NCBI GenBank assembly: GCA_964651225.1
Contig: CAZYYD010000003.1
Location: 51,533 to 115,532 of the forward strand
DNA: 64,000 nucleotides
Direction of reading: 5' to 3'
Source: an uncultured Ignavibacteriaceae bacterium
GTDB taxonomy: Bacteria > Bacteroidota > Ignavibacteria > UBA10030
Position 1 is the stretch's first letter; each line of letters opens with the position of its first letter. The translations under genes were made by a program, and so were the position numbers. The notes beneath the pieces were generated by a model. It had not been told where the DNA came from and made no database searches. It worked only from the letters and a program-made list of their open reading frames with translations. This document shows positions 49,094 to 64,000 of the stretch, piece by piece.

Positions 49094-49133
49094 GGAATGA
49101 GTGATGTCGTGTAAGACTGCCACGGAGGTCGTC

Positions 49134-50354
49134 ATGAAGACATTCATCGTTCTCTCTGCACTGCTTCTATTCTTGCCAACAGCCTGCCGCCAGGCGACCG
49201 AAACACCCATCCCTTCTCCTCCTCTTGAATTATCGGTCACAGAAAAGCAAATCGTTTCCGCCGACAACTCTTTCGGCTTCAAGCTGTTCACCCGCATCAA
49301 TTCAGCAGAACAGGGAAAGAATGTTTTTATTTCGCCTCTCAGCGTTTCGATGGCACTGGGGATGACGATGAACGGCGCAAACGGCGCGACGTATGATTCG
49401 ATGCAGCGGACACTGGAACTCCAGGGGTATACCGTTGAGCAGATTCAAACTTCCTATCAGAATATTATTTCCGTCCTTACGCAGCTTGATCCGAAAGTTA
49501 TTTTTCAAATTGCCAATTCCATCTGGTATCGGAATACATTTCAGGTAGAGACCGACTTTCTCGATGCCAATAAGAAATACTTCAACGCTGAGATCACTCC
49601 TCTCGATTTCAACAGCCCTACAGCTGTCGACATTATCAATGCCTGGGTGAATACAAAAACGAAGGGTAAAATCCCGACCATCATCGATAATCCGATTGAA
49701 CCGGAAGTGATTATGTATCTCATCAACGCAATTTACTTTAAAGGAACATGGACGTACGAATTCGATGCATCGAAAACAAAAGATACTCTTTTCACAAAGG
49801 CTGACGGCAGCAAGATCCCATGCAAGTTGATGATTCAAAAAGCTTCTCTTTCGTACTGTTTTACCGATGGCTGCCAGGTACTCGATTTGTTTTACGGCGA
49901 CGGAAAATTCAGTATGACCATAATCCTTCCGCCGGCTGGAACCACTATCGATGCCTTCACTGCAAGCCTGACACAGGAGCGCTGGAACACCTTCGTTTCA
50001 GGTCTTGCAAAAACCGACATAACAGTGGAACTGCCCAAATTCAAGCTGGAGTATAAGAGATCTCTCAATGATGAGCTCAAGGCGATGGGAATGGCAATTG
50101 CATTTTCCGGTCAGGCCGATTTTACCCGGATCAATAAGAACGGCGGTTTGTCAATTTCCAATGTGCTGCACAAGACGTTTGTTGAAGTGGACGAGCAGGG
50201 GACAACTGCTGCAGCCGTTACCAGTGTGGAAATATGGAATACCGTCATACAAGAGATACTCATGCGGATTGACCGTCCGTTTATCTTTGCCATTCGCGAA
50301 CATGAATCCGGAACGGTTCTCTTTATCGGTAAGATCGTCGAGCCGGCATTTTAA
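49134..50354 (+). CDS. serpin family protease inhibitor (lipoprotein signal)
   Basis: Internal ATG at 49134 and lipobox LPTAC. C-terminal serpin signature ..IDRPFIFAIREHESGTVLFIGKIVEP. Confidence 0.88.
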   Translation: MKTFIVLSALLLFLPTACRQATETPIPSPPLELSVTEKQIVSADNSFGFKLFTRINSAEQGKNVFISPLSVSMALGMTMNGANGATYDSMQRTLELQGYTVEQIQTSYQNIISVLTQLDPKVIFQIANSIWYRNTFQVETDFLDANKKYFNAEITPLDFNSPTAVDIINAWVNTKTKGKIPTIIDNPIEPEVIMYLINAIYFKGTWTYEFDASKTKDTLFTKADGSKIPCKLMIQKASLSYCFTDGCQVLDLFYGDGKFSMTIILPPAGTTIDAFTASLTQERWNTFVSGLAKTDITVELPKFKLEYKRSLNDELKAMGMAIAFSGQADFTRINKNGGLSISNVLHKTFVEVDEQGTTAAAVTSVEIWNTVIQEILMRIDRPFIFAIREHESGTVLFIGKIVEPAF

Positions 50355-50401: not shown

Positions 50402-51265
50402 TCAATGAGCTGTCGTGTCGACCGTATCTCCCGGGAGGTCGCGGTTCACGGTTTGCTGTACATCAAATGTGAAGACTCTTTCCGGGTGTGTGAGGCGAAC
50501 GATCTTTACGCTCTTCACTTTCGTAAGGGGACACAACACCACATCGCCAAACCCGTTTGTACTTCCCTGACTTGACCAGTATACCATTCCGAGTTTACTC
50601 TCTTTTTTGAACCAGCCGAGGAACACGACAGAGTGTCCGGTTCCGGTAGTCCAGGAAATGTTTGCAAAATCTCCGGGGCGAGCTCGTTCGGGCGGAACTT
50701 CCTCCCCCATCCCTGAATACTGCACCAGGGCATACTGGGTTCCCCAGCCGTCATCGTTCCACTTTCCCCAGAATTTGATCTGATCCTCGCGGCGCGATCC
50801 ATCCGGCTCCTGCATACGGAGCGACTCGAATCGATCGGCGGAGATCTTCGATCCGCCGTCTGAGAATAAAAGATTCATTGTCTCGACAAAGACACCGTAT
50901 GTTGAGCCGCTGCAGTAGCTTGTGGTGCGGGGAGGATCGAGAAGTGGTTTATCGAAGAGTTTTAATCCGTACCCAATAGGCGATTCTGTGGGCTTCGCCT
51001 TGATACCGGTAAAATATCCCCCTCCATCCATCGCGTGCGCCTGGACGATGTCGATCGCCTTCAGAATTTCAAGGTTATACCCATCGGTATATTTTTTGAA
51101 CATCGATTCATGGTTGAGATGCTGTTTCAATACCGGGATATCTGTACTGTCGAGGAAAAGCCATGTACCGTTATCCGTTGCGGCATGGTTCTTAACATCC
51201 TGGGAGAATGATAGAAATGTGCATATGAGTATAAAGAGGGAAAAACCAGATATTCGAACGATCAT
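50402..51265 (-). CDS. secreted hypothetical protein, possibly papain-fold (NlpC/P60-like)
   Basis: Signal peptide. SYCSGST and PGDFANI..GHSVVFLGW loosely resemble a Cys/His peptidase. It is not a recombinase. Confidence 0.35.
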   Translation of the reverse strand: MIVRISGFSLFILICTFLSFSQDVKNHAATDNGTWLFLDSTDIPVLKQHLNHESMFKKYTDGYNLEILKAIDIVQAHAMDGGGYFTGIKAKPTESPIGYGLKLFDKPLLDPPRTTSYCSGSTYGVFVETMNLLFSDGGSKISADRFESLRMQEPDGSRREDQIKFWGKWNDDGWGTQYALVQYSGMGEEVPPERARPGDFANISWTTGTGHSVVFLGWFKKESKLGMVYWSSQGSTNGFGDVVLCPLTKVKSVKIVRLTHPERVFTFDVQQTVNRDLPGDTVDTTAH

Positions 51266-51335
51266 CTTGTCTCCAGAAGTCTTTTATAAGAATGATGGAT
51301 GTAATTTGATGTTCCGCGATTTCAATATATCAGTG

Positions 51336-51480
51336 ATTGAACAGATTGTCAAATTGCGCAGGGAATGGATCAAGAAGGCTCATGATACAGGCAGGATTGA
51401 ATTCTATTCAAAGCATTTGACTTTCCCCTTGCAGAAAGAAGGAATACTGAGTACCATTTTCCGTCGGCAGGGATTTACTA
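51336..51480 (+). other. attC-like junction upstream of the GNAT cassette (degenerate)
   Basis: ATTGAAC (51336-51342) is followed by a GCGCAGG..GATCAA module shared with junctions 60750 and 62118. The 3' end ..TTTTCCGTCGGCAGGGATTTACTA has TTACT complementary to GAGTAAC at 52029. Confidence 0.3.
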
Positions 51481-51498
51481 TCTAAAATCAAAATTTCC

Positions 51499-51981
51499 AT
51501 GACCCCATTTGAGATTCGCACACTGAATAAAAGCGACCAGCCATGGGTGGAGAGCATTTTAACGAAATTCTGGCACTCTGCGAAAATCGTGACACGGGGT
51601 AAAATCCATCTTGCCGACCAGTTACCCGGCTTTATCGCCCACCAGGGGGAGAAACGATTGGGATTGATTACCTACCACGTACACAACAATGAGTGCGAAA
51701 TTGTTACCCTGAACAGTCTTGCTGAACAGATGGGAATTGGTTCTGCTCTCATAGCTGCTGTGAAGCATGCTGCGATCTCCTCTCAATGCAAGCGTCTCTG
51801 GCTGATTACCACAAACGACAATACGCCCGCTTTACGGTTCTATCAGAAACGGGGATTTTCGCTGACAGCAATTTATCCCAATGCGCTGGAGCAATCACGC
51901 CGGCTCAAACCGGAGATCCCTCTCTTCGGCATAGACGGAATACCTCTGCGGGATGAACTTGAACTTGAGATGCTTCTTTAG
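51499..51981 (+). CDS. GNAT family N-acetyltransferase (cassette-borne?)
   Basis: 160 aa with LAEQMGIGSALIAAV and ALRFYQKRGF. Confidence 0.8.
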   Translation: MTPFEIRTLNKSDQPWVESILTKFWHSAKIVTRGKIHLADQLPGFIAHQGEKRLGLITYHVHNNECEIVTLNSLAEQMGIGSALIAAVKHAAISSQCKRLWLITTNDNTPALRFYQKRGFSLTAIYPNALEQSRRLKPEIPLFGIDGIPLRDELELEMLL

Positions 51982-52028
51982 AAATGTTGCGAGAACCGGA
52001 GGCATACAAATAATATCTCCGCTTCGCG

Positions 52029-52105
52029 GAGTAACAAACTTACACTCCCGAGCACCTTAGGTCGGGAGTGTGCGCCAAAGGCGCATGCATGTCCGCCGGT
52101 TCTTA
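52029..52105 (+). other. attC-like 5' half-site plus hairpin after the GNAT gene
   Basis: GAGTAAC-AAAC (52029-52039), inner hairpin ACACTCCCGA/TCGGGAGTGT, and a possible weak R' GTTCTTA (52099-52105). Confidence 0.3.
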
Positions 52106-52772
52106 AGCGGAAGCTTCCAGCTGACAATCCCCTTCCTGCCAAGAACTGGCTAGACTAGCTTCAATTCAAAGCATTCGACATACTACTTGCGAATAGATGG
52201 AAAACTGAGTACCATTTTGCCATCGGCAAACATGCATCAGAAGGAGGCACTGACGGATGCATGGGCGGGGAGATTGTCAATATTTTAGATAACTCACTCC
52301 AACAGACAAAAACAAAATAAACGACATCCCGCAAAAAGCACGGGACAAGTTATGTCATCTATCCACCTAATTTTGATGGATATACGACATGGTTCAGAAT
52401 TGCAGTAGTTATGCAAGATGTGCGAGAGGAAGAGAGAATCAGTTGAACAAGAACGTCGTGGTGCTGTGCACCACGGCGAGCGAGCAGACATCAAAAAAAG
52501 GGGGAATTGGATAGAGGTTCTTGGATTGAGCAAAGCGTCGGTTGGAAGTGAGTGACCATGCATTTCATAGTATGAGTTTGTGGTCACACACGAACAAGAA
52601 GATGCTTTGCTCAACACCAAAAAGTTTTTTTTGTTCCCGTTTTTTTTGCTGCATTCCCGCAAAGACGGCGGGACTGACTCGCACTGACATTCTTGTGTTG
52701 TTAGACAGACTATGAGAAGATTGATGGTGACGTTGACTGAATGGAAACTGGTGGATCATTCTCGCCCACCTC

Positions 52773-52907
52773 GCATAACAGTCGGCAACACGGCGCTCAT
52801 TCTATGATATGGTAGTAGTATTGTATTCGCTCCATTGTTTTGTTCACTATTGAAAAAAATCATTTATAGTTCACAAAACAACAGCGTGTAGCCGACATAC
52901 GTTATGC
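52773..52907 (+). other. attC site candidate (135 bp)
   Basis: R'' GCATAAC (52773-52779) is a perfect complement of R' GTTATGC (52901-52907). Inner arms GTCGGCAACACG (52781-52792) and CGTGTAGCCGAC (52885-52896) pair at 11/12 positions. Confidence 0.7.
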
Positions 52908-52940
52908 GCAGGCCAGTGGCGAACTAAAATTAACCCCGAG

Positions 52941-54101
52941 GTGAGTGTGAATCCTCTGTTTCTTTTGAGTGGAATTGGAATGATTGTCGTCGCAATAGCG
53001 GCGGTGATGTATTGGAAGAAGTACTCAGGCGTTCTGTGGTCGTTCTTTTTCTGGGGTGCTCTCGCGTGGATAGTCGGAGTGACTCTCAAGGCAGGGGCTT
53101 CTATTCCAACACCAACCATAATTAACCAAGTTCGTAATGTTTTGCCTCGCACTTTTGCAGAACCCGTGCTTTGGATATACATAGGTCTGTTGACAGGAAT
53201 CTTCGAGTGTGGGGCAACACTCGGATTTGCATACATCCAGAAAATCCGAAAGGCGAATTGGAATCAATCAGTTGGATTTGGTGTAGGATTCGGAGCTGTA
53301 GAAGCTCTTCTCGTAGGGGTTGGCTCTTTGCTTATGATGGTGGTGGTCATTTATATTCCCGACAAACTTCCGCCAGAGTTTCTGAAGTTCATAACATCAG
53401 GCAATTCGTTGTGGTGCATTCCTGTTCCGATTATTGAGAGGGTTATTACTATCCCAATACATGCATTATCATGTGTACTTATCATATACGCAGTACAGAA
53501 ACAAGAATGGAAATGCTTCTACCTCTCATTTGCTTACAAGACTGTTGTAGATGCAATAGCCGGATTCATCCACATCTCATACGGATTGGAGAACCTCACA
53601 ACTCTCAGCACATGGGGCATGGAGCTTGTTTTCCTTCCTTTCGGCATTATTGGTGTTCTGGGGTTGTACGCATTTCGCAATAAATGGAAACAGTTAGGCA
53701 TGGAGACTACTTTTAGTACGCCAAAAGTCAAATTGCTGTTTTGGTGGATGGGGTCAATTTGCCTTCTCCTGATTATCCCCATCAAGGCAATCCGTTGGGA
53801 ACATTTGAGCGTGGCAACAACCATATTTGTCGGCATCGCTCCAAGCCTCTTAGGTCCCGCGGGTTTGTTGTTCCTCATTTTATCGAGTTCCGGCAAACTT
53901 TCACGCCTGACACTGGTTCAAATCACTTTATTCGTAACCGCAATTGCCCTCGGGCTCGAATTTGTTCAGCTTATTCCTCGACCGGGAATTCTGGCGAGGG
54001 TGCATTACACTTTTGATTGGCTTGACATTCTCGCAAGCATACTCAGTGTGTGTGCTGGCTACGTCACCGCTTTCATCATGACGAAAAAGAAATTACTGTA
54101 G
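52941..54101 (+). CDS. polytopic membrane protein; N-terminal half YhfC-like, C-terminal part VanZ-like (tentative)
   Basis: GTG start after GAGGTG. Motifs GIFECGAT, GFGAVEALLVG and ERVITIPIHALS recall YhfC intramembrane proteases. The C-terminus has LEFVQLIP..DWLDILASILS. Confidence 0.6.
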   Translation: MSVNPLFLLSGIGMIVVAIAAVMYWKKYSGVLWSFFFWGALAWIVGVTLKAGASIPTPTIINQVRNVLPRTFAEPVLWIYIGLLTGIFECGATLGFAYIQKIRKANWNQSVGFGVGFGAVEALLVGVGSLLMMVVVIYIPDKLPPEFLKFITSGNSLWCIPVPIIERVITIPIHALSCVLIIYAVQKQEWKCFYLSFAYKTVVDAIAGFIHISYGLENLTTLSTWGMELVFLPFGIIGVLGLYAFRNKWKQLGMETTFSTPKVKLLFWWMGSICLLLIIPIKAIRWEHLSVATTIFVGIAPSLLGPAGLLFLILSSSGKLSRLTLVQITLFVTAIALGLEFVQLIPRPGILARVHYTFDWLDILASILSVCAGYVTAFIMTKKKLL

Positions 54102-54131
54102 ACAAATGCAGCACCAAGGCCACTGGCCTGC

Positions 54132-54321
54132 GCATAACAAACGGCACCACGACGCTCACACATTTGGATAGGTCGAGAAGGAGCGAGAGTTATGCGTGAT
54201 GAAAAGTGTTCGCTCCACGCCGTGTGCGAGCCGAGAAATTGGTAATCGTCATTCATAGCTTTTTCAATCGTATCATTCGCAATCGCGCACACGGCGCGGC
54301 GTGGTGCCTGAAACGTTAGGC
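54132..54321 (+). other. attC site candidate (190 bp)
   Basis: R'' GCATAAC (54132-54138), spacer AAAC and GGCACCACGACGC (54143-54155). The latter pairs at 12/13 positions with GCGGCGTGGTGCC (54296-54308), followed by TGAAAC and R' GTTAGGC (54315-54321). Confidence 0.65.
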
Positions 54322-54421
54322 GCAAGCGAAGATTCCTTTGATAGTGCGTTTTGCGGCACCGCTGTTCACTTGGTAGCGGCACTTTTTTCTGCATTCAACG
54401 AGGCATCCTTCGGCCACAAGC

Positions 54422-54886
54422 ATGGATACGATTCACCTAAAATGGTTCAGACTTATGCTGCTCGTTGCAGGTTTGTACCTCATCGTTGGCTTTGGATTCG
54501 CCGAGCTTGGCAAGAATGCTCCATCAATTCAAATCCAGCGTTTCTGGAGGCTCGCGGCCTGGGCAGTCAGTTTCGTCGCATACTTAGCTCACATCTGGTA
54601 CGAACACTTTAGGTTTCACAACACGGCTCGTACAACGGCGCTTCATACATCTTTACCAGCAGCAATTGCATCATTTGGACTGGCAGTTGGTGCCAATATT
54701 CACGCACAGTTCGTCATCTCGCCTAATCCGACGATGCTTGCACTATCCCTTGTGTTGTGGCCCGCTCTAACAATGGTGCCAGCATTTGGGAGTCGCTTTC
54801 ATCCTTGCTTCCGGTCTGGCCCAATGGTGGAAGAAGAGTTAGCTCAGATGACGAAGGTTCTGTGCCGCAAACCGCGAAATCAATAG
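54422..54886 (+). CDS. hypothetical membrane protein
   Basis: 154 aa with four hydrophobic helices. No family recognised. Confidence 0.55.
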   Translation: MDTIHLKWFRLMLLVAGLYLIVGFGFAELGKNAPSIQIQRFWRLAAWAVSFVAYLAHIWYEHFRFHNTARTTALHTSLPAAIASFGLAVGANIHAQFVISPNPTMLALSLVLWPALTMVPAFGSRFHPCFRSGPMVEEELAQMTKVLCRKPRNQ

Positions 54887-54898
54887 AACTTTGCCTGC

Positions 54899-55127
54899 GG
54901 CTAACAAACGGCAAACCGGCGCCTGTCTGCCGTCAGGCAGGCCTGCCCGCCGGCAGGCGGGCTCGCACACTGGATAGGCGATGTTGAAACAGAGTTTGGC
55001 TAGATGTAAAGTGCTTCCGCCAAAAGGTGAAGCACGGCGGACAGGCGCTCCATTGCTCGCCGCCGAAGCAATGAATGATCAGATCGATATCGGCGGCTCG
55101 CAACGACGTGTTGCCTAAACGTTAGCT
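54899..55127 (+). other. attC site candidate (229 bp)
   Basis: R'' GGCTAAC (54899-54905), spacer AAAC and GGCAAACCGGCG (54910-54921). The latter pairs at 9/12 positions with CGACGTGTTGCC (55104-55115), followed by TAAAC and R' GTTAGCT (55121-55127). Confidence 0.6.
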
Positions 55128-55160
55128 GCCATTCTAACTAAATGGAAACATGGAGGTTCT

Positions 55161-55814
55161 ATGAGATGTAACAAGTGTTCGGTTCGAGCGATACTATCTC
55201 TTGCCATTTGGTTTATCGCACTTTCTTCCAACGGGTTCGCTCAGTCAATATCGATACGTGTCGCAGCGGGGATTGTAGACCTCCCACTATCTGATTGGTC
55301 AAAGTTCTTCGGATCGCAAGGGAACTCTTCTTATCCACTTTATTCCCAGAATAATCCCAACCCGTACTATGCTTTATCAATTCACTACGACATCAATTCG
55401 CACCATTCGGTCTATATTGGTACGGAACTTATTCAGACATCTGCTTCATCGAGCGATTCCGTTGAGATCGTCGATTGGAAATTCCAGGGTATTCCAATAA
55501 CTGTCGGTTATGAATACAAGTCGTTAAGAATCAACCAATATTTTACTCCAGTTATTGGCGGTGGAGTGTCATACTTCATAAGCCAAGTGGTTGCGAGGGA
55601 CCATTTCTTCAATCAAACTCTCAAACGTACTGGGAATGGCTATGGAATTCATGCATCCCTTGGATTAATATCACAATTGACTCAATCACTTTGCATGATT
55701 ACGCAAGCCCGTTATCGCTATTCTAATGGCATGGCTTTCAGCGGAAACAGGGATGACATTAAGGTCGAGTTCTCGGGATTTGATATTAGCATTGGACTGG
55801 AATATTCCTTATGA
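55161..55814 (+). CDS. outer-membrane beta-barrel-like protein
   Basis: GGAGG precedes the ATG. The product has a signal peptide and an alternating amphipathic strand pattern (..YYALSIHYDI.., ..GISIGLEYSL). Confidence 0.6.
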   Translation: MRCNKCSVRAILSLAIWFIALSSNGFAQSISIRVAAGIVDLPLSDWSKFFGSQGNSSYPLYSQNNPNPYYALSIHYDINSHHSVYIGTELIQTSASSSDSVEIVDWKFQGIPITVGYEYKSLRINQYFTPVIGGGVSYFISQVVARDHFFNQTLKRTGNGYGIHASLGLISQLTQSLCMITQARYRYSNGMAFSGNRDDIKVEFSGFDISIGLEYSL

Positions 55815-55823
55815 TGGAACGGC

Positions 55824-55901
55824 AGCTAACACGTCGCTCCGTCATTTTAAAAAGATTAAGGTCGTCGCTCATTGGCAGTAGACCACAGATGCAGTTAAGC
55901 T
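55824..55901 (+). other. short attC-like site (78 bp, poor inner stem)
   Basis: R'' AGCTAAC (55824-55830) is a perfect complement of TTAGCT at 55122-55127. R' GTTAAGCT (55894-55901) abuts the next ATG. Confidence 0.45.
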
Positions 55902-56459
55902 ATGCCTCCACCCTATGTTAAAACGATCCGCGAAGAGATCCTCTACGAGTATGCCAAGCTCATATCTCGTTCAGCTTATGGAACTCTCCAGCGGGGATTT
56001 ATTACAGACAGGTTCAAGAAGCTCGCCGCGGGCACCATCACGATCTCCGATACCATTCGGGAATGGGAACGCGAACAGCAACTTCCAAGGGAATGCGTTT
56101 TCTGCAAAACCACTGACAATCTCACAACGGACCATTTGATACCTCGCAATAGAGGCGGCGATGACTCTGCCGACAATCTAGTTCTGGCTTGTCAGTCGTG
56201 TAACTCTGCTCGTGGTGATAAAGGTATCTTTGAATGGCTGGGCCTTGAAAAGAAGGACGAACTTCACCGTCTCGTTGCTGGTAAGTATCTGAAACAGCTT
56301 CTTCGTGTTCACGAGTCGGCAGGCACGATTCACACTTCGAAGGACGAATTGGCCGAGCTTTGCAAGCAATGTCCTCTCCCTGGTGTATGCGAAGAATGGC
56401 ACTCGGTAGGTAAGCTTACATGTTTTTGTTTGGAGAGCATATTGCCACGGCGGCAGTGA
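55902..56459 (+). CDS. HNH endonuclease
   Basis: CVFCKTTDNLTTDHLIPRNRGGDDSADNLVLACQSCNSARG. Confidence 0.85.
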   Translation: MPPPYVKTIREEILYEYAKLISRSAYGTLQRGFITDRFKKLAAGTITISDTIREWEREQQLPRECVFCKTTDNLTTDHLIPRNRGGDDSADNLVLACQSCNSARGDKGIFEWLGLEKKDELHRLVAGKYLKQLLRVHESAGTIHTSKDELAELCKQCPLPGVCEEWHSVGKLTCFCLESILPRRQ

Positions 56460-56473
56460 TGCATTGCAACTGA

Positions 56474-56687
56474 GCCTAACACAACCTATATCTAAAGGAA
56501 AAAGGTAAATAAAAACCAGAGAAGGTGAAGTGATCAGTACAAAGGAAACCTCCTCCACCAATCCGCCTAAAAACTGGCGGACACCCCGTTAAAAAAACAC
56601 GGGGTGCATAAAGCGCACAAAAAGTGTGAAAGATGATGGACAAGAAGGTAGAACACGGCAGGCAGGCAACTACGACTTCAATTAGCG
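56474..56687 (+). other. degenerate attC-like junction (R'' present, R' not canonical)
   Basis: (A)GCCTAAC (56473-56480) pairs at 7/8 with GTTAAGCT at 55894-55901. The nearest R'-like word is ATTAGCG (56681-56687). Internal hairpins: CCGCC..GGCGG and ACACCCCGT..ACGGGGTG. Confidence 0.3.
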
Positions 56688-56699
56688 CAGGGGAAAAGA

Positions 56700-57875
56700 A
56701 TGGCAACACCGAAAATAGGTCCTAATCCATTTACACCTCGTTCCGGACAGGAACCGAAAGTGTTCTTGGGACGAGAGAAAGAACTCGATATTTTTCAAAA
56801 GCACCTTGAGAAAGCAAGAACAAAACACTATGATCACTTTGTTGTTGTCGGCGGATGGGGAACCGGAAAAACAACACTTCTCAAGGAGTTCCGAAAAGCT
56901 GCACATGCCCGACGTGTCATTACTTCCTTCGTAAGCGTTCACGAATTTAAACCCGACAATCTTCTTGGACCAGTAATCCAATTGCTCACTCACATTCCTC
57001 GTAATTTACCGATCAAATTCGATCGCATGAAACGCTTCTCGAAATATCTGCAGGGAGTCGGCGTAACGTTGCCGGTGATTGGAGGAGGTATCGAGATCGG
57101 AGAAAAGAAACGTTTCGATGGGGATCCTCAGGAACTGCTGCTTGAAGGTCTCGTTCAACTGTGGCACGAACTCAAGTCAGAGACAGATGCGTTAGTTGTA
57201 TTTCTCGATGACGTACAGCATTACGATGCCATCCCTGAGGTGCTGGGTGTTCTAAAAAACGTTCTCAGCGATGACGATATTATTAAAGAAACAGGATACC
57301 TTTTTGTCCTAGCCGCCACGGAAGAAGGGTGGTCAAACTTCTTGCGTAAGAATCATCCCATTGGCCGATATTTTGTCCCCATTCTGAAAATCTACCCGCT
57401 TTCGAAAACGAATTCCTTGCGAATCATCGATGCAACGCTCGATGGCTCAGGCGTAATTTTTACACATGAAGTGCAAGAAGCTGTCTTTGATTATACTGAA
57501 GGACATCCGTTCCAGATGCAGATACTATGCTCCTACTTATATGAAAATCAAATAAAGGGAAATGTCGGGCGTGACCAGCTTGACAGTGCACTCTCCCAAA
57601 CGCTTGATGAGCTCGGACCAATCATTCTCGATCCCCTTTATTCTATGGCGAGTGAGCAAGAGAGAGCAACCCTCCATGTGATGTCCTCAGATTACAAGGT
57701 TTACTCATTTGATGACATATTAAAACAGACTCGAAAACTGAAGGTACACATCGGCAAGGGAACACTTGCGGCAGTGGTGGCACGATTGAGTGAAAAGGGC
57801 CTCCTTCTAAAAATGGAAAGAGGAAAATATCGTCTCGTAAATAGATTGTTCAATGAATTTGTCGTACGACAATGA
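56700..57875 (+). CDS. P-loop NTPase (archaeal-ATPase/ORC-like AAA) with a C-terminal winged-helix-like tail
   Basis: Walker A GGWGTGKTTLL, Walker B VVFLDDVQH and C-terminus ..VVARLSEKGLLLKMERGKYRLV. Confidence 0.75.
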   Translation: MATPKIGPNPFTPRSGQEPKVFLGREKELDIFQKHLEKARTKHYDHFVVVGGWGTGKTTLLKEFRKAAHARRVITSFVSVHEFKPDNLLGPVIQLLTHIPRNLPIKFDRMKRFSKYLQGVGVTLPVIGGGIEIGEKKRFDGDPQELLLEGLVQLWHELKSETDALVVFLDDVQHYDAIPEVLGVLKNVLSDDDIIKETGYLFVLAATEEGWSNFLRKNHPIGRYFVPILKIYPLSKTNSLRIIDATLDGSGVIFTHEVQEAVFDYTEGHPFQMQILCSYLYENQIKGNVGRDQLDSALSQTLDELGPIILDPLYSMASEQERATLHVMSSDYKVYSFDDILKQTRKLKVHIGKGTLAAVVARLSEKGLLLKMERGKYRLVNRLFNEFVVRQ

Positions 57876-58295
57876 TCGGAGAGAATTTGCACAGTTTGCA
57901 GAATAGAGTCGGATTTGCAAACTCTGCAAACTTCTATGCATAGACAGTGTTTCAGATATTCATCGTACAGGCGCGGTAGCATATAGCGATACTTCTTGCC
58001 AAGTGGTTAGTTTGAAAAACATTGGATTCTCAAGAATCTGGACAGGGTGTCCAGATAATAATTCCTTTAAAAACCCTCTGCAGCAATAAACATAGACGCC
58101 AATATAGACATCGTGACTATGTCGTGATTCCAGGAAATCATTCTCAGACCGAGAAGGACGTCATGCACTAGTTACTCAAAGAAAAGCAGCCATTATCCTC
58201 GCACCCGCAAGTGAATTGATGAAGCGACATGAGCCGGAACAGAACGAATCTCCTAAGGAAGACCGCATTTCTCATCACCACTCCGGGTTGCAACA

Positions 58296-58324
58296 TTGAG
58301 CGATTTATGATGAAATGGTATAAT
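58296..58324 (+). promoter_or_regulatory. sigma-70-type promoter candidate with an extended -10
   Basis: TTGAGC (58296-58301), a 17-nt spacer, then TGgTATAAT (-10 at 58319-58324). It lies upstream of the lipoprotein ORF. Confidence 0.4.
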
Positions 58325-58456
58325 ATGGAAAAAAGATCAATACTTTCGATGTCACGCAGAATCACGCGTTGATAAATGCAGGAGCGAAGATATTGTAACG
58401 ACACTATGAAAAGAGTTCGCCAACCTTCTTCGTCTCACATCTCAGAAAGACGAAGG

Positions 58457-59038
58457 ATGAATTTTTCCCTTAGTACGACACTTGTCCTCTGTTTCTCTGT
58501 TCTTCTTCTATCCATCGGATGCAGGAAAACCGGCTCGGGTGATGCAAACCGACACCCAACCGTTTTGTCTTTTACATTTCCAGAGCGGCAAACGGCTTCC
58601 AACGATTCTCTTGCTCTCTCCCTCGACTCGTTGAGGAATGCCCTCATCAACACTCAGGACTATGGCTCAGTCAGACTCTCCAACGGCGAATACTCCATAG
58701 ATCCACTGAGACTTTCTATCTCATTCCTGGGCGGCTTTATCAACCTTGACCTGGACGGCGATGGGTACAAAGATGCCATAGGTTCACTCTCCATCAATAC
58801 CGGCGGCACCGGTTGTTTTAACTCGCTGGATATCTTTCTCAATCGCCGCGGAACTGCTTATCACTCGGATTCCTACGAAATCGGTGACCGCGAACGCATC
58901 GATTCCCTGCGGGTCATGGGCGACACGCTCGATATCTTTTTCCTGGTCCACGATCCAGGCGATCCGATGTCCTCCCCGACGATGATCGAAGAGAGGAGAT
59001 TGCTGCTTGTTGGCGGCAAGATCGTCGAGATCGAATAA
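58457..59038 (+). CDS. hypothetical lipoprotein
   Basis: Start taken at MNFSLSTTLVLCFSVLLLSIGC (lipobox). Alternative in-frame starts are at 58376 and 58406. Confidence 0.6.
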   Translation: MNFSLSTTLVLCFSVLLLSIGCRKTGSGDANRHPTVLSFTFPERQTASNDSLALSLDSLRNALINTQDYGSVRLSNGEYSIDPLRLSISFLGGFINLDLDGDGYKDAIGSLSINTGGTGCFNSLDIFLNRRGTAYHSDSYEIGDRERIDSLRVMGDTLDIFFLVHDPGDPMSSPTMIEERRLLLVGGKIVEIE

Positions 59039-59081
59039 GACGAGCAGCACCTCCTCCACTTCGCTGCAACAGGTACGCTCG

Positions 59082-59155
59082 CTTCACTTCGTTTGCCTCA
59101 GAGAACATGAAAAATTATATTGTGGAAAAAGGAACGGCATTGTTTTCACATACGG
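59082..59155 (+). repeat. 74-nt junction repeat, copy 1
   Basis: 65/74 nt are identical to 60196-60269 (CTTCAYTWCGTTTGCCTCAGAGAACATGAAAAATTAT...AACGGCATTGTTTTCRCATACGG). Confidence 0.8.
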
Positions 59156-59269
59156 TAATCAGCATTGTCATGTTTGCAGAGTCAATGCTCTTTGAACTGT
59201 TACATATCGGAAAAAAGGAATCAGGCAATATAACCGAAGACCATTCCCACATGAATTGAGGTGATAACT

Positions 59270-60121
59270 ATGGGTGTCATTTCTAAGATGCTGAAGTTTT
59301 TTCGTTCTTCTTGGCAGCATGTATCCATGCAGTACGAAACACGTTTTTTCCTCGTCATATGGCTGGCGCTCAGCACTATTGTGGTTGTAGTCAGTTTCGC
59401 GACAGGATTCTATGCAGATAAAAATACACTTAGCAATATACTTGGGAATGCTCACATTTCTTTGCTTGACCTTTTTATAGTTGCGATCGTTGCATCTTTC
59501 CTGTTGGCAAAGCGCTCCCAACGCGAATGGAAGCCAACGCGAGACATGTTACTTTCCCGCTTATTCACTGAGACTGACAGGTTGCTTCAGGTTGTCCTTC
59601 CTCGGTCAATTCACTCTTCAGGAGACAATATCTTCTTCTCCTTTGGTGAGTTTGAATCAACCACATCTGAACACTTTTTAACCCTCCAAGAAAGTGATGT
59701 GGACATTCAGATTGGATCCGAGGCATTGGATGACATGAAGGGAGAACGATATCTAGCCGAAGGAAGCTCTGAGGCACATGCAAACGAAGTTCGAATCGCA
59801 AGGTTTTTGCGCTTGCAACAATCCATCTTAGATTCTCGTGTCCGAATTCTTCCCTTATTTGATTCCGCTCGCTCTTTGGTTCGGTATTCAGTTTCTTCTG
59901 ATCTTGTCTCAGCTGTGGCGCGAGTCTACTACGCATTATTGGATCTGGAAGACACACTAAATAGGTCACAACGCTCTGGCTTTAAAGAGAAATGGGTTTG
60001 GATTGGAAATGCTCAAGCAACTCTAGCTTTATCAACGTTACAGTTATTCAAGAGACTTGCAATGGAGAGTTCGAGCCGACAATCTTTCAAGGAGCGCTTC
60101 AAGAACATAGCTGAAAATTGA
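59270..60121 (+). CDS. hypothetical protein with N-terminal TM helices
   Basis: ATG at 59270, preceded by GAGGTGA. No family recognised. Confidence 0.55.
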   Translation: MGVISKMLKFFRSSWQHVSMQYETRFFLVIWLALSTIVVVVSFATGFYADKNTLSNILGNAHISLLDLFIVAIVASFLLAKRSQREWKPTRDMLLSRLFTETDRLLQVVLPRSIHSSGDNIFFSFGEFESTTSEHFLTLQESDVDIQIGSEALDDMKGERYLAEGSSEAHANEVRIARFLRLQQSILDSRVRILPLFDSARSLVRYSVSSDLVSAVARVYYALLDLEDTLNRSQRSGFKEKWVWIGNAQATLALSTLQLFKRLAMESSSRQSFKERFKNIAEN

Positions 60122-60195
60122 AGCAAATATAACGTTATAGAATGATCTAATCATTTATAGGTATGATCGCAAAACAACTTTTGGATAAACACCTG

Positions 60196-60269
60196 CTTCA
60201 TTACGTTTGCCTCAGAGAACATGAAAAATTATTCTGTGTCAAATAGAACGGCATTGTTTTCGCATACGG
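60196..60269 (+). repeat. 74-nt junction repeat, copy 2
   Basis: See 59082-59155. It lies between ATATAAC (60129-60135) and GTTGTAT (60319-60325). Confidence 0.8.
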
Positions 60270-60323
60270 CAGCCGCCATAACTGGCCGAACTTCAACAGG
60301 GTAACCATTATGAGGATTGTTGT

Positions 60324-60755
60324 ATGAGACAGTTAGTATTCATTTCACAGACTATCATCCAAATCTTCGTTGCTGTAGGGGCGCTGGTCTGCGGTCTCCT
60401 CTTGATCATCGATCCCTCGGATGTACTCCTCCAAATGCATCCTGATATACTGAAGGATTCTCCTTTTCATGATTTTCTTGCTCCAGGAGTCATTCTGTTT
60501 CTGGTGAATGGCGTCGGTCAGCTCTTCGCCGGATTACTCAGCATCCGGAGGCACCGTTTTGCAGGCTATGTTGGTGCGGTGTTCGGTATAGGCTTGATGA
60601 CCTGGATTTTCGTTCAGGTCAATATGATCGGTGGCAGGCACATTCTCCAATACAGCTATTTTCTATTCGGCCTCCTCGAAACTGCTCTTTCTTTCTCGAT
60701 CCATAATTACCTTACAGCTGCGAGAGAACAAAGAACCGCCAGCAGCAGTGTATAA
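60324..60755 (+). CDS. hypothetical membrane protein
   Basis: 143 aa with four hydrophobic helices. The stop codon lies inside the GTATAAC box. Confidence 0.55.
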   Translation: MRQLVFISQTIIQIFVAVGALVCGLLLIIDPSDVLLQMHPDILKDSPFHDFLAPGVILFLVNGVGQLFAGLLSIRRHRFAGYVGAVFGIGLMTWIFVQVNMIGGRHILQYSYFLFGLLETALSFSIHNYLTAAREQRTASSSV

Positions 60756-60879
60756 CAAACGCCAAACGCCGCGCAGGAGGGCACCGATCAAATACATTGG
60801 GATTATCAAGCCGGTCCCGAATCTACACTTCTGGATAGACGCCGGCTCCATTGAGTTTGCCTTAACGACGGAGGTTCAC
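60750..60879 (+). other. attC-like junction (R'' good, R' weak)
   Basis: GTATAAC (60750-60756), AAAC and GCCAAAC ... GTTTGCC-TTAAC. The only GTT word is GTTCACC (60873-60879). GGAGG and the next ATG (60881) lie at its 3' end. Confidence 0.4.
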
Positions 60880-60880
60880 C

Positions 60881-61696
60881 ATGAGAATAGTCGATCTGAA
60901 CGAACAGCATCTGCCTCTCTATTTTGTTTGCCTTGAAGATTGGTCAGACGAGATCAAGGAAGCTGGCCGCCACAAGGAAGTCTGGTATCACCGAATGAAA
61001 GACAAAGGACTTCGGGTCAAGCTGGCGCTGGACGACCAAGGTACCGTGGGCGGGATGATCCAGTATGTTCCCATCGAATACTCCGTCGTTGAAGGGTCCG
61101 GTCTGTTCTTTATCAACTGCATCTGGGTTCATGGCCACAAACAAGGAAGGGGAAACTTCCAGCATCGGGGCATGGGCAAGGCGCTCCTTGAAGCTGCCGA
61201 ATTTGATGCCCGGGAACTCGGAGCCAAAGGCATCGCCGCCTGGGGTCTTCTCATTCCCGTGTTTATGCGCGCCTCCTGGTTCAAGAAGCACGGTTATCGA
61301 AGTGCCGACAGACAGGGTATCCAGGTTCTCCTGTGGAAGCCCTTCACACCTGATGCCGTCCCTCCAGCATGGATTCGACAAAAAGGCAAACCTCCTCTTG
61401 AACAGGGCAAGGTAACCGTCACCGCCTTTTGCAGCGGCTGGTGTCCGGCTCAGAACATGGCATTTGAGCGGGCCAAAAGAGCTGCTGCTGAGCCGGAATT
61501 TGCAGAGAAGGCCGTGTACCGCGAAGTCGACACATTCGATCGAACGGAGCTGCTGCGGTCCGGAATCTCCGACGCACTGTTCGTCAACCACAAAGAGGTA
61601 CGGACAGGCCCCCCTCCTTCGTACGAGAAAATAAGAAAACTGATAGGCAAGCAGGCCAAGAAGACCAGATCACTAATATCAGGTAAAGGCGCGTAA
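60881..61696 (+). CDS. GNAT-type acetyltransferase with a C-terminal thioredoxin-like/YoaP-like extension (tentative)
   Basis: ..WVHGHKQGRGNFQHRGMGKALLEAA.. acetyl-CoA loop. The C-terminal segment has TAFCSGWCP. Confidence 0.6.
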   Translation: MRIVDLNEQHLPLYFVCLEDWSDEIKEAGRHKEVWYHRMKDKGLRVKLALDDQGTVGGMIQYVPIEYSVVEGSGLFFINCIWVHGHKQGRGNFQHRGMGKALLEAAEFDARELGAKGIAAWGLLIPVFMRASWFKKHGYRSADRQGIQVLLWKPFTPDAVPPAWIRQKGKPPLEQGKVTVTAFCSGWCPAQNMAFERAKRAAAEPEFAEKAVYREVDTFDRTELLRSGISDALFVNHKEVRTGPPPSYEKIRKLIGKQAKKTRSLISGKGA

Positions 61697-61716
61697 CAGG
61701 CAGCGGCCAGCAACCG

Positions 61717-62079
61717 GTGATGGATACTTTTCTAGCATATTGCGGTTTGGACTGTGATGGTTGCCCAATTCATCTGGCAACTTTGGAGCCAGACCAAGCG
61801 AAACAAAAAGCGATGAGGCTTGAAATCGCTCGCATCTGCAGTCAACAGTACGGTATGGACTTGCTTCCTCAGGATGTTACCGACTGTGATGGCTGCCGTT
61901 CGCAAACGAACCGACTCTTCTCCGGTTGTTCAAGATGTGAAATTAGAAAGTGTGCAATCGAAAAGAACCTCACAAGTTGTGCTCTCTGTCTTGATTATGC
62001 GTGCCGGAAGCTTCTGAAGCACTTCGAGTCTGACCCTGCTGCTCAAACCCGGCTCGAAGCCATGAGAGCCTCTCACTGA
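61717..62079 (+). CDS. DUF3795-like Cys-rich protein
   Basis: YCGLDCDGCPIH .. CDGCR .. CSRCEIRKCA .. CALCLDYAC. Confidence 0.65.
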   Translation: MMDTFLAYCGLDCDGCPIHLATLEPDQAKQKAMRLEIARICSQQYGMDLLPQDVTDCDGCRSQTNRLFSGCSRCEIRKCAIEKNLTSCALCLDYACRKLLKHFESDPAAQTRLEAMRASH

Positions 62080-62117
62080 AGTTTGGCACCATTGCCCAAG
62101 GTTGATGACGGCCAGAG

Positions 62118-62205
62118 GCATAGAACAAACACCAAATTCTGCGCAGCGGAGACCCGATCGAAAACGCCGGGATAAATAAGGTTGTTTACCTAAACGGAAC
62201 GCGGG
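62118..62205 (+). other. attC-like junction (degenerate)
   Basis: GCATAGAAC-AAAC (62118-62130) and a GCGCAGCGGAGACCCGATCG module homologous to 60771-60795. The 3' part is GTTTACC-TAAAC-GGAACGC, with no GTT core. Confidence 0.3.
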
Positions 62206-62246
62206 CATATGTATTCAGATTTGTCAGAGCAAAAAGAAAGGTCAAT

Positions 62247-63785
62247 ATGTCGGATACCAGGAAGTGTTGTGTCATCCGTCTGATTGCTGCCCTATCTGTT
62301 TTACTGTCAGGGACGCTGCTTTCTCAACCGGATCGTACAGCTGATCTTAAGAAAATGATCGAGGAAAGAGTTACGTGGGATTATCCGAGCTTTGTCCTTG
62401 ACAAACTCCGGTCACACCGTATTGTTATGCTTGCCGATGCCGGCCATGGGATTGGTCTGTACCAACAGACTGTTATCGAAGTGTTGAATAGCTGGGCAAC
62501 CGCTTGCGAGGCTGCGCATCAAGGAGATACTTCATCTATGCTCCCCCGCACGCTCTTCCTTGTTCTCGAGATGGATTCTCTCCGTGCAGACGCTTTGAAA
62601 AGGTACTTCAAATCCGGAGACATCGCAGAAGCGCTCGAACCTGAATCCCTTATGGGCTATCAAACCACTGCTGCATCGATCGAATTCCTGTCGGACCTCC
62701 GCGATTTCTGGCTCCGGGTAGACACGCTGAACCGCACTCTCCTCAAAGATCACCCCGTCAGTTTCGATCTCATCGGTCCTGAAAATAAAATCAATACGCT
62801 CGATTGGTCGAATGAGAGAAAGGATCGATATTTCTTCAGCGAGCGCGATGAATATTCATCATCCCAGATCATACATCTCCTGGACAGCCGGCCTGAGGCA
62901 AAAGCGCTCCTGTTTTACGGCTCCGCCCATTATCTGGTTGGTGAGCAGCAAAAGCGGGGAGAAAAATCTGTCGGTAAGGGATATTATCTTGCACATTATC
63001 TCACCGAACATTTTCGGGAGCGGGGTGGGATTTATACCTTCGAACAGGTTTCTATTCCCCTTGCGGATCAGCTGGACGATGTATTTCGGAAGATTGGAAA
63101 ATCGTTCGCCGCGGATAATTCTTCCTGGACTAATATTCCGGTTGGTGCAAATTCGTTCCTCCCGCATTTTGACGGTACGATCTTTTTCAATACCAGGACG
63201 ATACAAGTACCGCATATTTCGAGAATCTTCACAGAGAATCTGGTTAATGCGATCCTGAAGAAGATCGATGCGTACTGTAATACGTCGAATGAATACAGCC
63301 GGTATTACTTGAAGCTCTGGTTCGTGTATTTATCCAACTTCACGGATAAAAATTACACACAGATTAATCCGGGTGATTCCCTGGCCGTTGCCGCAGCCTT
63401 GAGCGAACTCAAATCCTGGCGTGCATCAACGAAACTGGATGTGGTACACGACATCGAAACTCTTGCCATCTGGAAGCGCTCCATAGAGAGGATCCGCAGT
63501 TCCTCGGACCCGCAATCGATGCAGTACGAGCGTCTCCTGGCCGGCTCTATCGGATTCAAGGTCTGGTTTCAAAACGGCGCTTCGCCCGCAGTACGGGCCG
63601 ATGCAGTATGGGAGTATATCAAGAGGTACAAGAAGGCGATTATCATCGACAACCTCGCCGCGTTGCTATGGATCGGTACAGCCGCGGAAAAAGAAAAGGC
63701 TCTCTCAATTCTTGAACGTGAAACAGGGCAGAAGTTTCGGAGAGCGAAAGAGTGGACGCGATGGCTGGAACAATCGAAACTTTGA
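62247..63785 (+). CDS. hypothetical secreted protein
   Basis: 512 aa with signal peptide ..LIAALSVLLSGTLLS. No family recognised. Confidence 0.6.
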   Translation: MSDTRKCCVIRLIAALSVLLSGTLLSQPDRTADLKKMIEERVTWDYPSFVLDKLRSHRIVMLADAGHGIGLYQQTVIEVLNSWATACEAAHQGDTSSMLPRTLFLVLEMDSLRADALKRYFKSGDIAEALEPESLMGYQTTAASIEFLSDLRDFWLRVDTLNRTLLKDHPVSFDLIGPENKINTLDWSNERKDRYFFSERDEYSSSQIIHLLDSRPEAKALLFYGSAHYLVGEQQKRGEKSVGKGYYLAHYLTEHFRERGGIYTFEQVSIPLADQLDDVFRKIGKSFAADNSSWTNIPVGANSFLPHFDGTIFFNTRTIQVPHISRIFTENLVNAILKKIDAYCNTSNEYSRYYLKLWFVYLSNFTDKNYTQINPGDSLAVAAALSELKSWRASTKLDVVHDIETLAIWKRSIERIRSSSDPQSMQYERLLAGSIGFKVWFQNGASPAVRADAVWEYIKRYKKAIIIDNLAALLWIGTAAEKEKALSILERETGQKFRRAKEWTRWLEQSKL

Positions 63786-63820
63786 TCTCTCTCTTCGTTT
63801 TCCGTACCGATGGAACAGCC

Positions 63821-63877
63821 TGATAACAAACGGATTTACCAGTCAAATATAAGGGAGCGAAACCATTGCAGTTGATC
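63821..63877 (+). other. short attC site candidate (57 bp)
   Basis: R'' TGATAAC (63821-63827), AAAC and GGATTT, then GAAACC (63859-63864), ATTGCA and R' GTTGATC (63871-63877). The geometry is canonical but the stems are short. Confidence 0.45.
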
Positions 63878-64000
63878 GTCTCGGCAGTTTTAATCACACT
63901 CGCATTGATCTTTTACTCGGTCGGAGTATGGTCCGAAAGAATCGCCCGGTATCTGAAACCATGGCATGTGGCCGCATTTTGGACCGGTTTTTTGTTCGAT
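63866..64000 (+). CDS. HsmA/TIGR03987-like small membrane protein, 3' end cut by the window edge
   Basis: The frame is open to base 64000. Translation ..LIVSAVLITLALIFYSVGVWSERIARYLKPWHVAAFWTGFLFD matches my recollection of that family. TTG starts at 63866 (after AAGGGAG) or 63872. Confidence 0.5.
   Translation, partial: MQLIVSAVLITLALIFYSVGVWSERIARYLKPWHVAAFWTGFLFD

Follow-up and report, generated by a model that had tools for sequence, protein, structure and literature searches.

From about 51.3 kb to its end, a 64,000-nucleotide (nt) window on contig CAZYYD010000003.1 of an uncultured Ignavibacteriaceae bacterium carries a run of small open reading frames (ORFs), and the question raised by this locus was whether the run is an integron cassette array that has no integrase, as an earlier note on the same DNA had proposed. 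The ORF list places every ORF between 51.3 kb and the end of the window on the + strand, and their Pfam assignments are unrelated, as that note had said. The proposal was partly confirmed, and the finding is real but smaller than had been claimed. The locus is very probably a cluster of attC sites lacking an integron-integrase (CALIN), with an intact promoter-proximal cassette array at 52.4-55.1 kb, a decayed distal part from 55.1 to about 64.6 kb and a missing upstream integrase gene. Intact sites enclose only three cassettes (52409-55121, 2.7 kb), and the other ~9.5 kb is best read as fossil. The CALIN-like array is supported by three attC sites, by the complementarity of the cassette ends, by cassettes that recur elsewhere and by the lack of an integrase within reach.

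Three attC sites and the cassettes they close

Relatives of the sites were sought by a scan for their common 5' arm TAACARWCGGCAMMMCGRCGC in a single genome of each species, and 67 stretches were obtained, mostly from Ignavibacteria or 'Bacteroidetes' metagenome-assembled genomes (MAGs). Many of the 67 contained 3-6 matches on the same strand at a spacing of 0.7-2.5 kb. A total of 61 complete repeats from other genomes, and none from the window, were aligned (alignment A1, consensus length 156 nt), and a covariance model, R1, was built on this alignment. R1 follows the lineage-specific modelling of Ghaly et al. (PMC8352920) and is not the IntegronFinder model.

R1 gave exactly three matches on the 64-kb window, all on the + strand (67-103 bits, E 5e-14 to 2e-22), which are listed as attC A, B and C in Table 1. 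The earlier note had described three palindromic junctions, ending in GTTATGC, GTTAGGC and GTTAGCT, and had called for an attC covariance-model check; the check, run with the lineage-specific model, found the three sites, and the folds and R1 gave exactly the same coordinates. The three palindromic junctions are real attC sites.

In the folds of sites A-C the ends pair as the R box, and an asymmetric spacer separates them from a second helix, the L box, with a variable interior beyond it. In sites B and C, as in the family consensus, a 4-nt spacer (AAAC) faces one of 5-6 nt (TAAAC, TGAAAC), and the 5' spacer of attC A is AG or shorter. The L box of attC B is GGCACCACG/CGTGGTGCC, and this site begins 31 nt past the YhfC stop codon. 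The L box of attC A has one T-T mismatch in the bottom-strand minimum free energy (MFE) fold, while attC C fits the family consensus but with two insertions (nhmmer, 114 bits). The fold z-scores of sites A, B and C were -5.5, -1.6 and -4.2 (bottom strand for A and C), and none of 200 shuffles folded as well as the bottom strand of attC A. The three window sites measure 135, 190 and 229 nt and those of other genomes 91-264 nt, and the insertions lie in the interior.

The consensus structure given by RNAalifold on A1 has the R box, an L box of 8 bp and an inner stem and shows compensatory changes, and TAAC and GTT were invariant across the 61 external sites. Over 71 sites, 91% of the cells were paired, against 69% in shuffles and 28-42% when the partners were slid, and two-sided changes were counted in 249 cells, against 79 in shuffles; neither value was reached in any of 500 shuffles. 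All 8 pairs of the L box change on both sides in the 71 sites, while AAC/GTT stays fixed. In MAGs the family forms same-strand arrays of up to 13 sites per 8 kb, with 175 R1 matches in total. A search of Rfam 15 gave nothing at the gathering score, and its matches at E<=10 included no attC family and were only noise. Two generic scans (AAC...GTT with R- and L-box pairing, and constrained arm folding) performed no better than on shuffles and were dropped as tests.

A crossover at G|TT assigns the bases that follow GTT to the next cassette, and they are expected to pair with the 3' end of that same cassette. Positions 52901-52920 and 54119-54138, at the two ends of cassette 2, are complementary at 20/20, and the 13 bases beyond the R box at its start match the flank of site B and not that of site A. 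The ends of cassette 3 (54333-54359 and 54862-54888) are 78% complementary over 27 nt. Three intact units, 52409-52901, 52902-54315 and 54316-55121, therefore follow from this pattern. The 6-nt end complementarities in the earlier note are correct in the sequence, but they have little power because only three positions vary, and the 20/20 match is the stronger observation. The same cassettes were found in other arrays, as shown by the second GNAT, a homologue of the 512-amino-acid (aa) protein and the ORF-less cassette 1.

Conservation extends about 40 nt beyond R' and R'' (54322-54360 and 54858-54898), and the cassette ends of more than 12 other arrays carry these segments at 79-89% identity. 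The two segments are mutually complementary, which in many cassettes adds about 80 nt to the conserved palindrome beyond the attC itself.

Homologues of cassette 1 start at the R' of an attC in loci L097, L078 and L087, and another lies in L094 (623-1056). The ORF-less cassette was found in at least five arrays, twice on one contig. Its body in the window (52409-52772) is one long nested hairpin in which 5' blocks pair with 3' blocks. RNAalifold on five copies (the window, L094 578-1018, L097 6853-7340, L078 5426-5915 and L087 6866-7354) gave 108 pairs, 25 of them with compensatory changes. The centre is variable among the copies and deleted in the window, and the outermost stem prolongs the R box of attC A. 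Rfam had no match for the ORF-less cassette, which could be a cargo-less selfish cassette, a small RNA or a promoter module.

The missing integrase and the recombinase of related arrays

No tyrosine recombinase was found in the window with a box II regular expression, phmmer --max (IntI1 and XerD queries) or tblastn with the recombinase of this lineage, and phmmer also found none in L001, a contig that is 99.94% identical to the window and extends 9.8 kb beyond its end. The same queries detected the recombinases in L040, L041, L054 and L094 as a positive control, and the claim of the earlier note that the window has no tyrosine recombinase was upheld by these searches. The integrase-free span covers 51 kb upstream of the array and the 9.8 kb past the window end, and the locus is therefore a CALIN by the definition of Cury et al. 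(2016, PMC4889954) and Neron et al. (2022, PMC9024848). A complete integron has intI, attI and cassettes together, and there is no intI in the window.

The note had placed the array start at 51.3 kb; the intact array seems to begin at about 52.4 kb, at the GTTATGC junction. Position 52408 corresponds to the R' of a normal attC in L097, L078 and L087, and to an attI-like site in L094, 62 nt after the recombinase stop. The sequence TTGCA(A/G)TAGTTATGC is common to the left boundary of the window array and the attI-like site of L094, and positions 52393-52414 appear to resemble the right half of the attI-like site of the relatives, a likeness that is weak alone.

The layout of the platform was seen in relatives of this array. 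A tyrosine recombinase was found upstream of, and co-oriented with, R1-type arrays in L041, L054 and L094, and five homologues from a large protein collection were examined, with the same layout at every locus. The order is core genes, the recombinase, a AAAACGCAATACG...TAG|TTAGGC motif 22-67 nt further on, and then small unrelated co-oriented genes, each followed by an R1 match. The core genes are mfd and a uvrC-like gene, menaquinone radical-SAM genes, or rny-coaE-dapF. From synteny in eight loci, the recombinase is inferred to service these arrays.

Loci L110 (8903-8960) and L111 (5050-5110) encode an identical recombinase (P0103) and share their DNA up to ...GGAGTAG, and they diverge from TTA on, with TTAGTTGCAATTGCC after the crossover in L110 and TTATGCGTCATGGAC in L111. 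This divergence would be what different first cassettes leave at one crossover point.

The recombinase family matched Pfam PF00589 (E 3e-41) and PF13495. Its best NCBIfam model was TIGR02249 (integron integrase), with 221 bits in two stretches against a cut-off of 265. The best PDB match of family member P0002 was VchIntIA (2A3V, E 1e-39), a split match in which residues 174-247 of VchIntIA face 32 residues of P0002, and the alignment gap lies opposite the IntI-specific insertion, the I2 region near patch III covered by intI_Cterm. In contrast, the match of XerA to P0002 (4A8E/5HXY) runs in one piece, and the distance between box I and box II is Xer-like, at about 91 aa versus 131 in IntI1 and 97 in XerD (1A0P). 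The catalytic HxLRHsFAT and the C-terminal SPxD motif are kept. By these alignments, the array-linked recombinase lacks the IntI-specific insertion, and no description of integrons with an insertion-less integrase was found in the literature. About 100 extra aa extend the N-terminus of many members, and the copy in L041 has a frameshift.

In all eight related platforms the recombinase is immediately upstream of the first cassette, while its expected position in the window is taken by 400 nt of non-coding DNA, the first GNAT and a 58-aa ORF. This arrangement, and the lack of a recombinase over the span given above, speak against a complete working integron whose integrase is encoded at another place in this genome, the array being split or rearranged, and still serves the cassettes in trans. 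Such an integron is nevertheless conceivable, if on the improbable side, since the three proximal sites are intact and high-scoring, half of the CALINs are in replicons that encode IntI (PMC4889954), and the assemblies of several samples break at 51.3-52.6 kb, which could be strain variation at the array head. For the CALIN itself, deletion or replacement of the integrase gene is plausible.

Other observations were made at the array head. At 51305-51317, 52197, 52427-52543 and 52628, contigs begin or stop in three or four metagenome assemblies that are independent of each other, and both flanks of these breaks assemble over tens of kb; the breaks may reflect strain heterogeneity or low coverage. 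A 74-nt direct repeat (51387-51460 and 52145-52218, 76% identical) brackets the first GNAT, which is at most a possible cassette. The 58-aa ORF reads SVIEQIVKLRREWIKKAHDTG at 51330-51392 and has a faint likeness over 23 aa (E 0.38) to the recombinase C-terminus SPIDQIIHPRRK..AHDTG. It may be a trace of a lost integrase gene, which is a lead and not a finding.

From established integron biology, a tyrosine recombinase would be expected to act on the single strand in its folded form, with a cut at AA|C within the R box, and the cassette would be excised as a circle and re-inserted at an attI site. Where no integrase is adjacent, rearrangement would proceed only in trans, by a recombinase elsewhere in the genome or an incoming one, and the sites would otherwise decay. 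The truncated sites downstream of 55.1 kb look like such decay.

The probably decayed distal stretch

The earlier note had listed eleven 'RYYYAAC-type' boxes after the ORFs, of which only the one at 56474 fits strict RYYYAAC. The boxes at 52029, 55824, 56474, 59064, 60129, 60750, 61691, 62120 and 63821 had no convincing 3' partner in folds, and none was significant by R1 with filters off, by half-site hidden Markov models (HMMs) or by full-length HMMs from two external alignments. Any AAC, taken as a loose box, is expected by chance within 48 nt of a stop codon in about half of the cases.

Collectively, the boxes do carry a real signal. TAACAAAC occurs 5 times on the + strand of the region, where 0.25 are expected (about 20-fold, P = 6e-6), and TAACA was found at -10 to +51 nt of the stop in 8 of 12 ORFs of the region, compared with 5 of 73 control ORFs from the rest of the window. 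The second GNAT has a homologue in L072 (85.6% aa and 83.7% DNA identity) that is followed by a full attC (L072 4426-4613, 58 bits), and the DNA homology between the window and L072 ends at 61698, just past GCGTAAC; the attC after the second GNAT is therefore truncated. In L096, a 41% homologue of the 512-aa protein is flanked by an attC on each side. The AGCTAAC at 55824 exactly complements the preceding R', a 7/7 match within 50 nt for which the chance was estimated by us at about 0.003, although the fold of 55815-55905 had no attC-like hairpin and no 3' half for this box.

It is unlikely, in view of these results, that only 52.4-55.1 kb is integron-derived and that the ORFs of 55.1-64.6 kb are ordinary co-oriented genes with chance boxes. 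The lack of any significant model or HMM match at the junctions of 55.1-64.6 kb, the frequency of loose boxes by chance and a gene order that is identical in four samples agree with that explanation. The TAACAAAC enrichment, the TAACA found after 6 of the 10 remaining stops (7% elsewhere), the truncated GNAT site, the 512-aa homologue and the AGCTAAC complement do not, and because of them the other boxes are taken as relics and not as chance. The stretch from 55.1 to about 64.6 kb is thus assigned, with moderate confidence, to fossil cassettes with truncated or decayed sites.

The remaining candidate relics are given in Table 1. The 75-nt repeats that follow the 220-aa and 286-aa ORFs have a weak likeness to R1 positions 75-131 (9.2 bits, E 0.41; nhmmer E 1) and may be remnants of attC interiors. 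In L001 the co-oriented small ORFs end about 600 nt past the window (at ~L001 12150) and are succeeded by larger genes (methyltransferase, DinB, DUF3857 and CMD), with no further R1 matches. Where the array apparently ends distally, about 0.6 kb beyond the window, a run of degenerate short repeats of the CTTCGTGA(T/C)CC type occupies L001 12190-12345, with the last small ORF on one side and a 203-aa gene on the other.

Several results weigh against the reading as a CALIN with a decayed tail. Only 3 of ~13 junctions have a detectable site. In bottom-strand MFE folds, a consensus-like member and sites B and C have an unbroken 9-bp L box with no bulge, whereas a typical attC has extrahelical bases near L'' on the bottom strand (PMC5027507); energy folding does not prove such bases absent. 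An HMM of the attI-like site from nine loci did not single out 52393-52409 (E 8.4, rank 7th). The earlier note had suggested a comparison of cassette presence and absence, and no such polymorphism was seen: near-identical strains from the four samples that hold these exact proteins keep one order, and exact-protein look-ups (512-aa, 287-aa, GNAT and 154-aa proteins) returned the same gene order only and no alternative cassettes. Nothing demonstrates present-day mobility of the window cassettes. The CALIN with a decayed tail is still preferred on the evidence given above.

That the palindromes are a generic intergenic repeat spread in Ignavibacteria (like a repetitive extragenic palindrome, a miniature inverted-repeat transposable element or a terminator) is highly improbable, for although they are longer (135-229 nt) than most attC sites, have no extrahelical bases in folds and are not separated from background by generic hairpin scans, their AAC...GTT core is invariant and their paired positions covary, they have strictly a single orientation with one ORF per unit, a tyrosine recombinase and a TAG|TTA site always lie upstream of them, the sequences of two strains that share an identical recombinase part exactly at G|TT, and the same gene is accompanied by these sites in unrelated arrays.

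Table 1. Features of the cassette region and its relatives; positions are those of the window unless a locus is named
Feature	Position	Strand	Remarks
attC A, 135 nt	52773-52907	+	R1 66.8 bits, E 5e-14; R'' GCATAAC, R' GTTATGC; crossover G52901|T52902
attC B, 190 nt	54132-54321	+	R1 88.5 bits, E 4e-19; R'' GCATAAC, R' GTTAGGC; crossover G54315|T54316
attC C, 229 nt	54899-55127	+	R1 102.7 bits, E 2e-22; R'' GGCTAAC, R' GTTAGCT; crossover G55121|T55122
Left boundary GAATTGCAGTAG|TTATGC	52393-52414	+	Fixed by cassette homology starting at 52408
Cassette 1, no ORF	52409-52901	+	Begins after GTTATGC 52408-52414, closes with attC A
Cassette 2, YhfC ORF and attC B	52902-54315	+	One ORF
Cassette 3, 154-aa ORF (54422-54886) and attC C	54316-55121	+	One ORF
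Probable fossil cassettes, ten ORFs without intact attC	55122-64000	+	No R1 match; TAACA enrichment; two cassette homologues
R''-plus-spacer-like GAGTAACAAAC	52029-52039	+	48 nt past first GNAT stop, upstream of intact array; no partner; R1 4.9 bits, E 4.2
R''-like AGCTAAC	55824-55830	+	10 nt past OMP-like stop; exact complement of attC C R' (GTTAGCT)
75-nt repeat pair	59081-59155 and 60195-60269	+	88% identical; in spacers after 220-aa and 286-aa ORFs
Possible decayed attC	60750-60871	+	GTATAAC-AAAC-GCCAAAC 5', TTTGCC-TTAAC-G 3', no GTT; R1 full model 6.2 bits, E 2.1, not significant alone
Truncated attC (R'' GCGTAAC and few bases)	61691-61697	+	After GNAT 60881-61696
R''-plus-spacer relic TGATAACAAAC	63821-63831	+	36 nt past 512-aa stop; no 3' half before next ORF; half-site HMM E 3.6
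GNAT acetyltransferase (first)	51499-51981	+	Pfam Acetyltransf_1, E 1e-12
YhfC-family membrane protein	52941-54101	+	Pfam YhfC, E 3e-23
154-aa membrane protein	54422-54886	+	Pfam: none
OMP-like ORF	55161-55814	+	Weak OMP_b-brl, below Pfam cut-off
HNH	55902-56459	+	Pfam
AAA_16/KAP-type ATPase	56700-57875	+	Pfam
220-aa, 286-aa and 143-aa ORFs	Between ATPase and second GNAT	+	Pfam: none
Second GNAT	60881-61696	+	Pfam
DUF3795	61717-62079	+	Pfam; starts 20 nt past truncated attC
512-aa protein	62247-63785	+	Pfam: none
124-aa protein, start only	Window end	+	Last of ten co-oriented ORFs in 55122-64000
Recombinase loci in related arrays	L041 5287-6553; L054 1030-2286; L094 1-510; L106-L113 (8001-9200 in most)	- (L054)	

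Family searches did not reproduce the 'HsmA' and 'VanZ' labels that had earlier been given to two of the products. The left neighbour of the region (50402-51265, - strand) encodes a 287-aa secreted protein with no Pfam family, and a serpin and DsbD lie further left. The serpin is a full-length bacterial serpin (49101-50354; Pfam Serpin, E 1.5e-111) between DsbD and the array flank. The 287-aa protein has 33 metagenome relatives (53-81% identity; loci L006-L038), none with the neighbouring genes of the window, so that the left flank is uninformative on presence or absence of the array and the gene itself is in a variable context. The closest relatives of the valyl-tRNA synthetase of the window are 84-87% identical and are from MAGs named Ignavibacteriales, Ignavibacteriae or Bacteroidota, which places the host in the Ignavibacteriales.

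Relation to known integrons and significance

CALINs and integrons in Ignavibacteriae have already been described (PMC4889954, PMC9024848). CALINs have no integrase within 4 kb, and here there is none over 51 kb upstream and 9.8 kb past the window. The cassettes are likewise of unknown or non-resistance function, the array is small (the CALIN average is 5-6 sites), and, like 95% of CALINs, it has no recognisable intI pseudogene close by. The locus differs in that its sites were identified with a lineage-specific model and not with that of IntegronFinder, and in that its intact part is trailed by a long tail of decayed sites.

With sedentary chromosomal integrons (Vibrio VCRs and Xanthomonas; PMC8352920) the system shares a repeat family of about 156 nt that is common to a lineage, and the arrays of relatives hold at least 13 sites per 8 kb at fixed chromosomal positions beside core genes. 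The host, however, is of the Ignavibacteriales, the sites are longer and branched inside, conservation in many cassettes also takes in about 40 nt beyond R''/R', and the window keeps only three sites. The 'inverted integrase' integrons (Treponema denticola group; PMC4889954) are similar in that the recombinase of the relatives is upstream of the cassettes and co-oriented with them. The integrases of the Treponema group have the IntI-specific domain, whereas the recombinases of this attC family are without it, and the window has no integrase.

A tentative proposal, to which slightly less than even confidence is given, is that the arrays represent a separate Ignavibacteriales integron lineage with an integrase that is nearest to IntI, has the length of Xer and is without the insertion that reads the extrahelical bases, and with attC sites whose L box is unbroken. 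An unbroken L box without an extrahelical base is in line with a recombinase that has no insertion, a point that folding alone cannot settle.

Taken alone, the window is one more integrase-less array of a known class, from a phylum that has been sampled poorly. Among the products of its cassettes are a membrane protease of the YhfC type, small membrane proteins, an HNH nuclease, acetyltransferases and an ATPase that is STAND-like, and the decay of an array is visible in one locus, with three intact sites beside truncated ones. The most interesting outcome is outside the window, where an attC family goes with an integrase that lacks the defining insertion. If the proposed lineage is real, current tools would call all such elements CALINs; because IntegronFinder-type criteria exclude insertion-less enzymes, the integrons of this lineage would be systematically counted as CALINs. 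Strand choice would then work differently, or on double-stranded sites, and in this lineage an intermediate that links Xer recombinases with integron integrases could still be alive. If the enzyme is a working integrase, it would bear on the evolution of IntI from Xer-like ancestors (PMC4792948) and on the need for the insertion.

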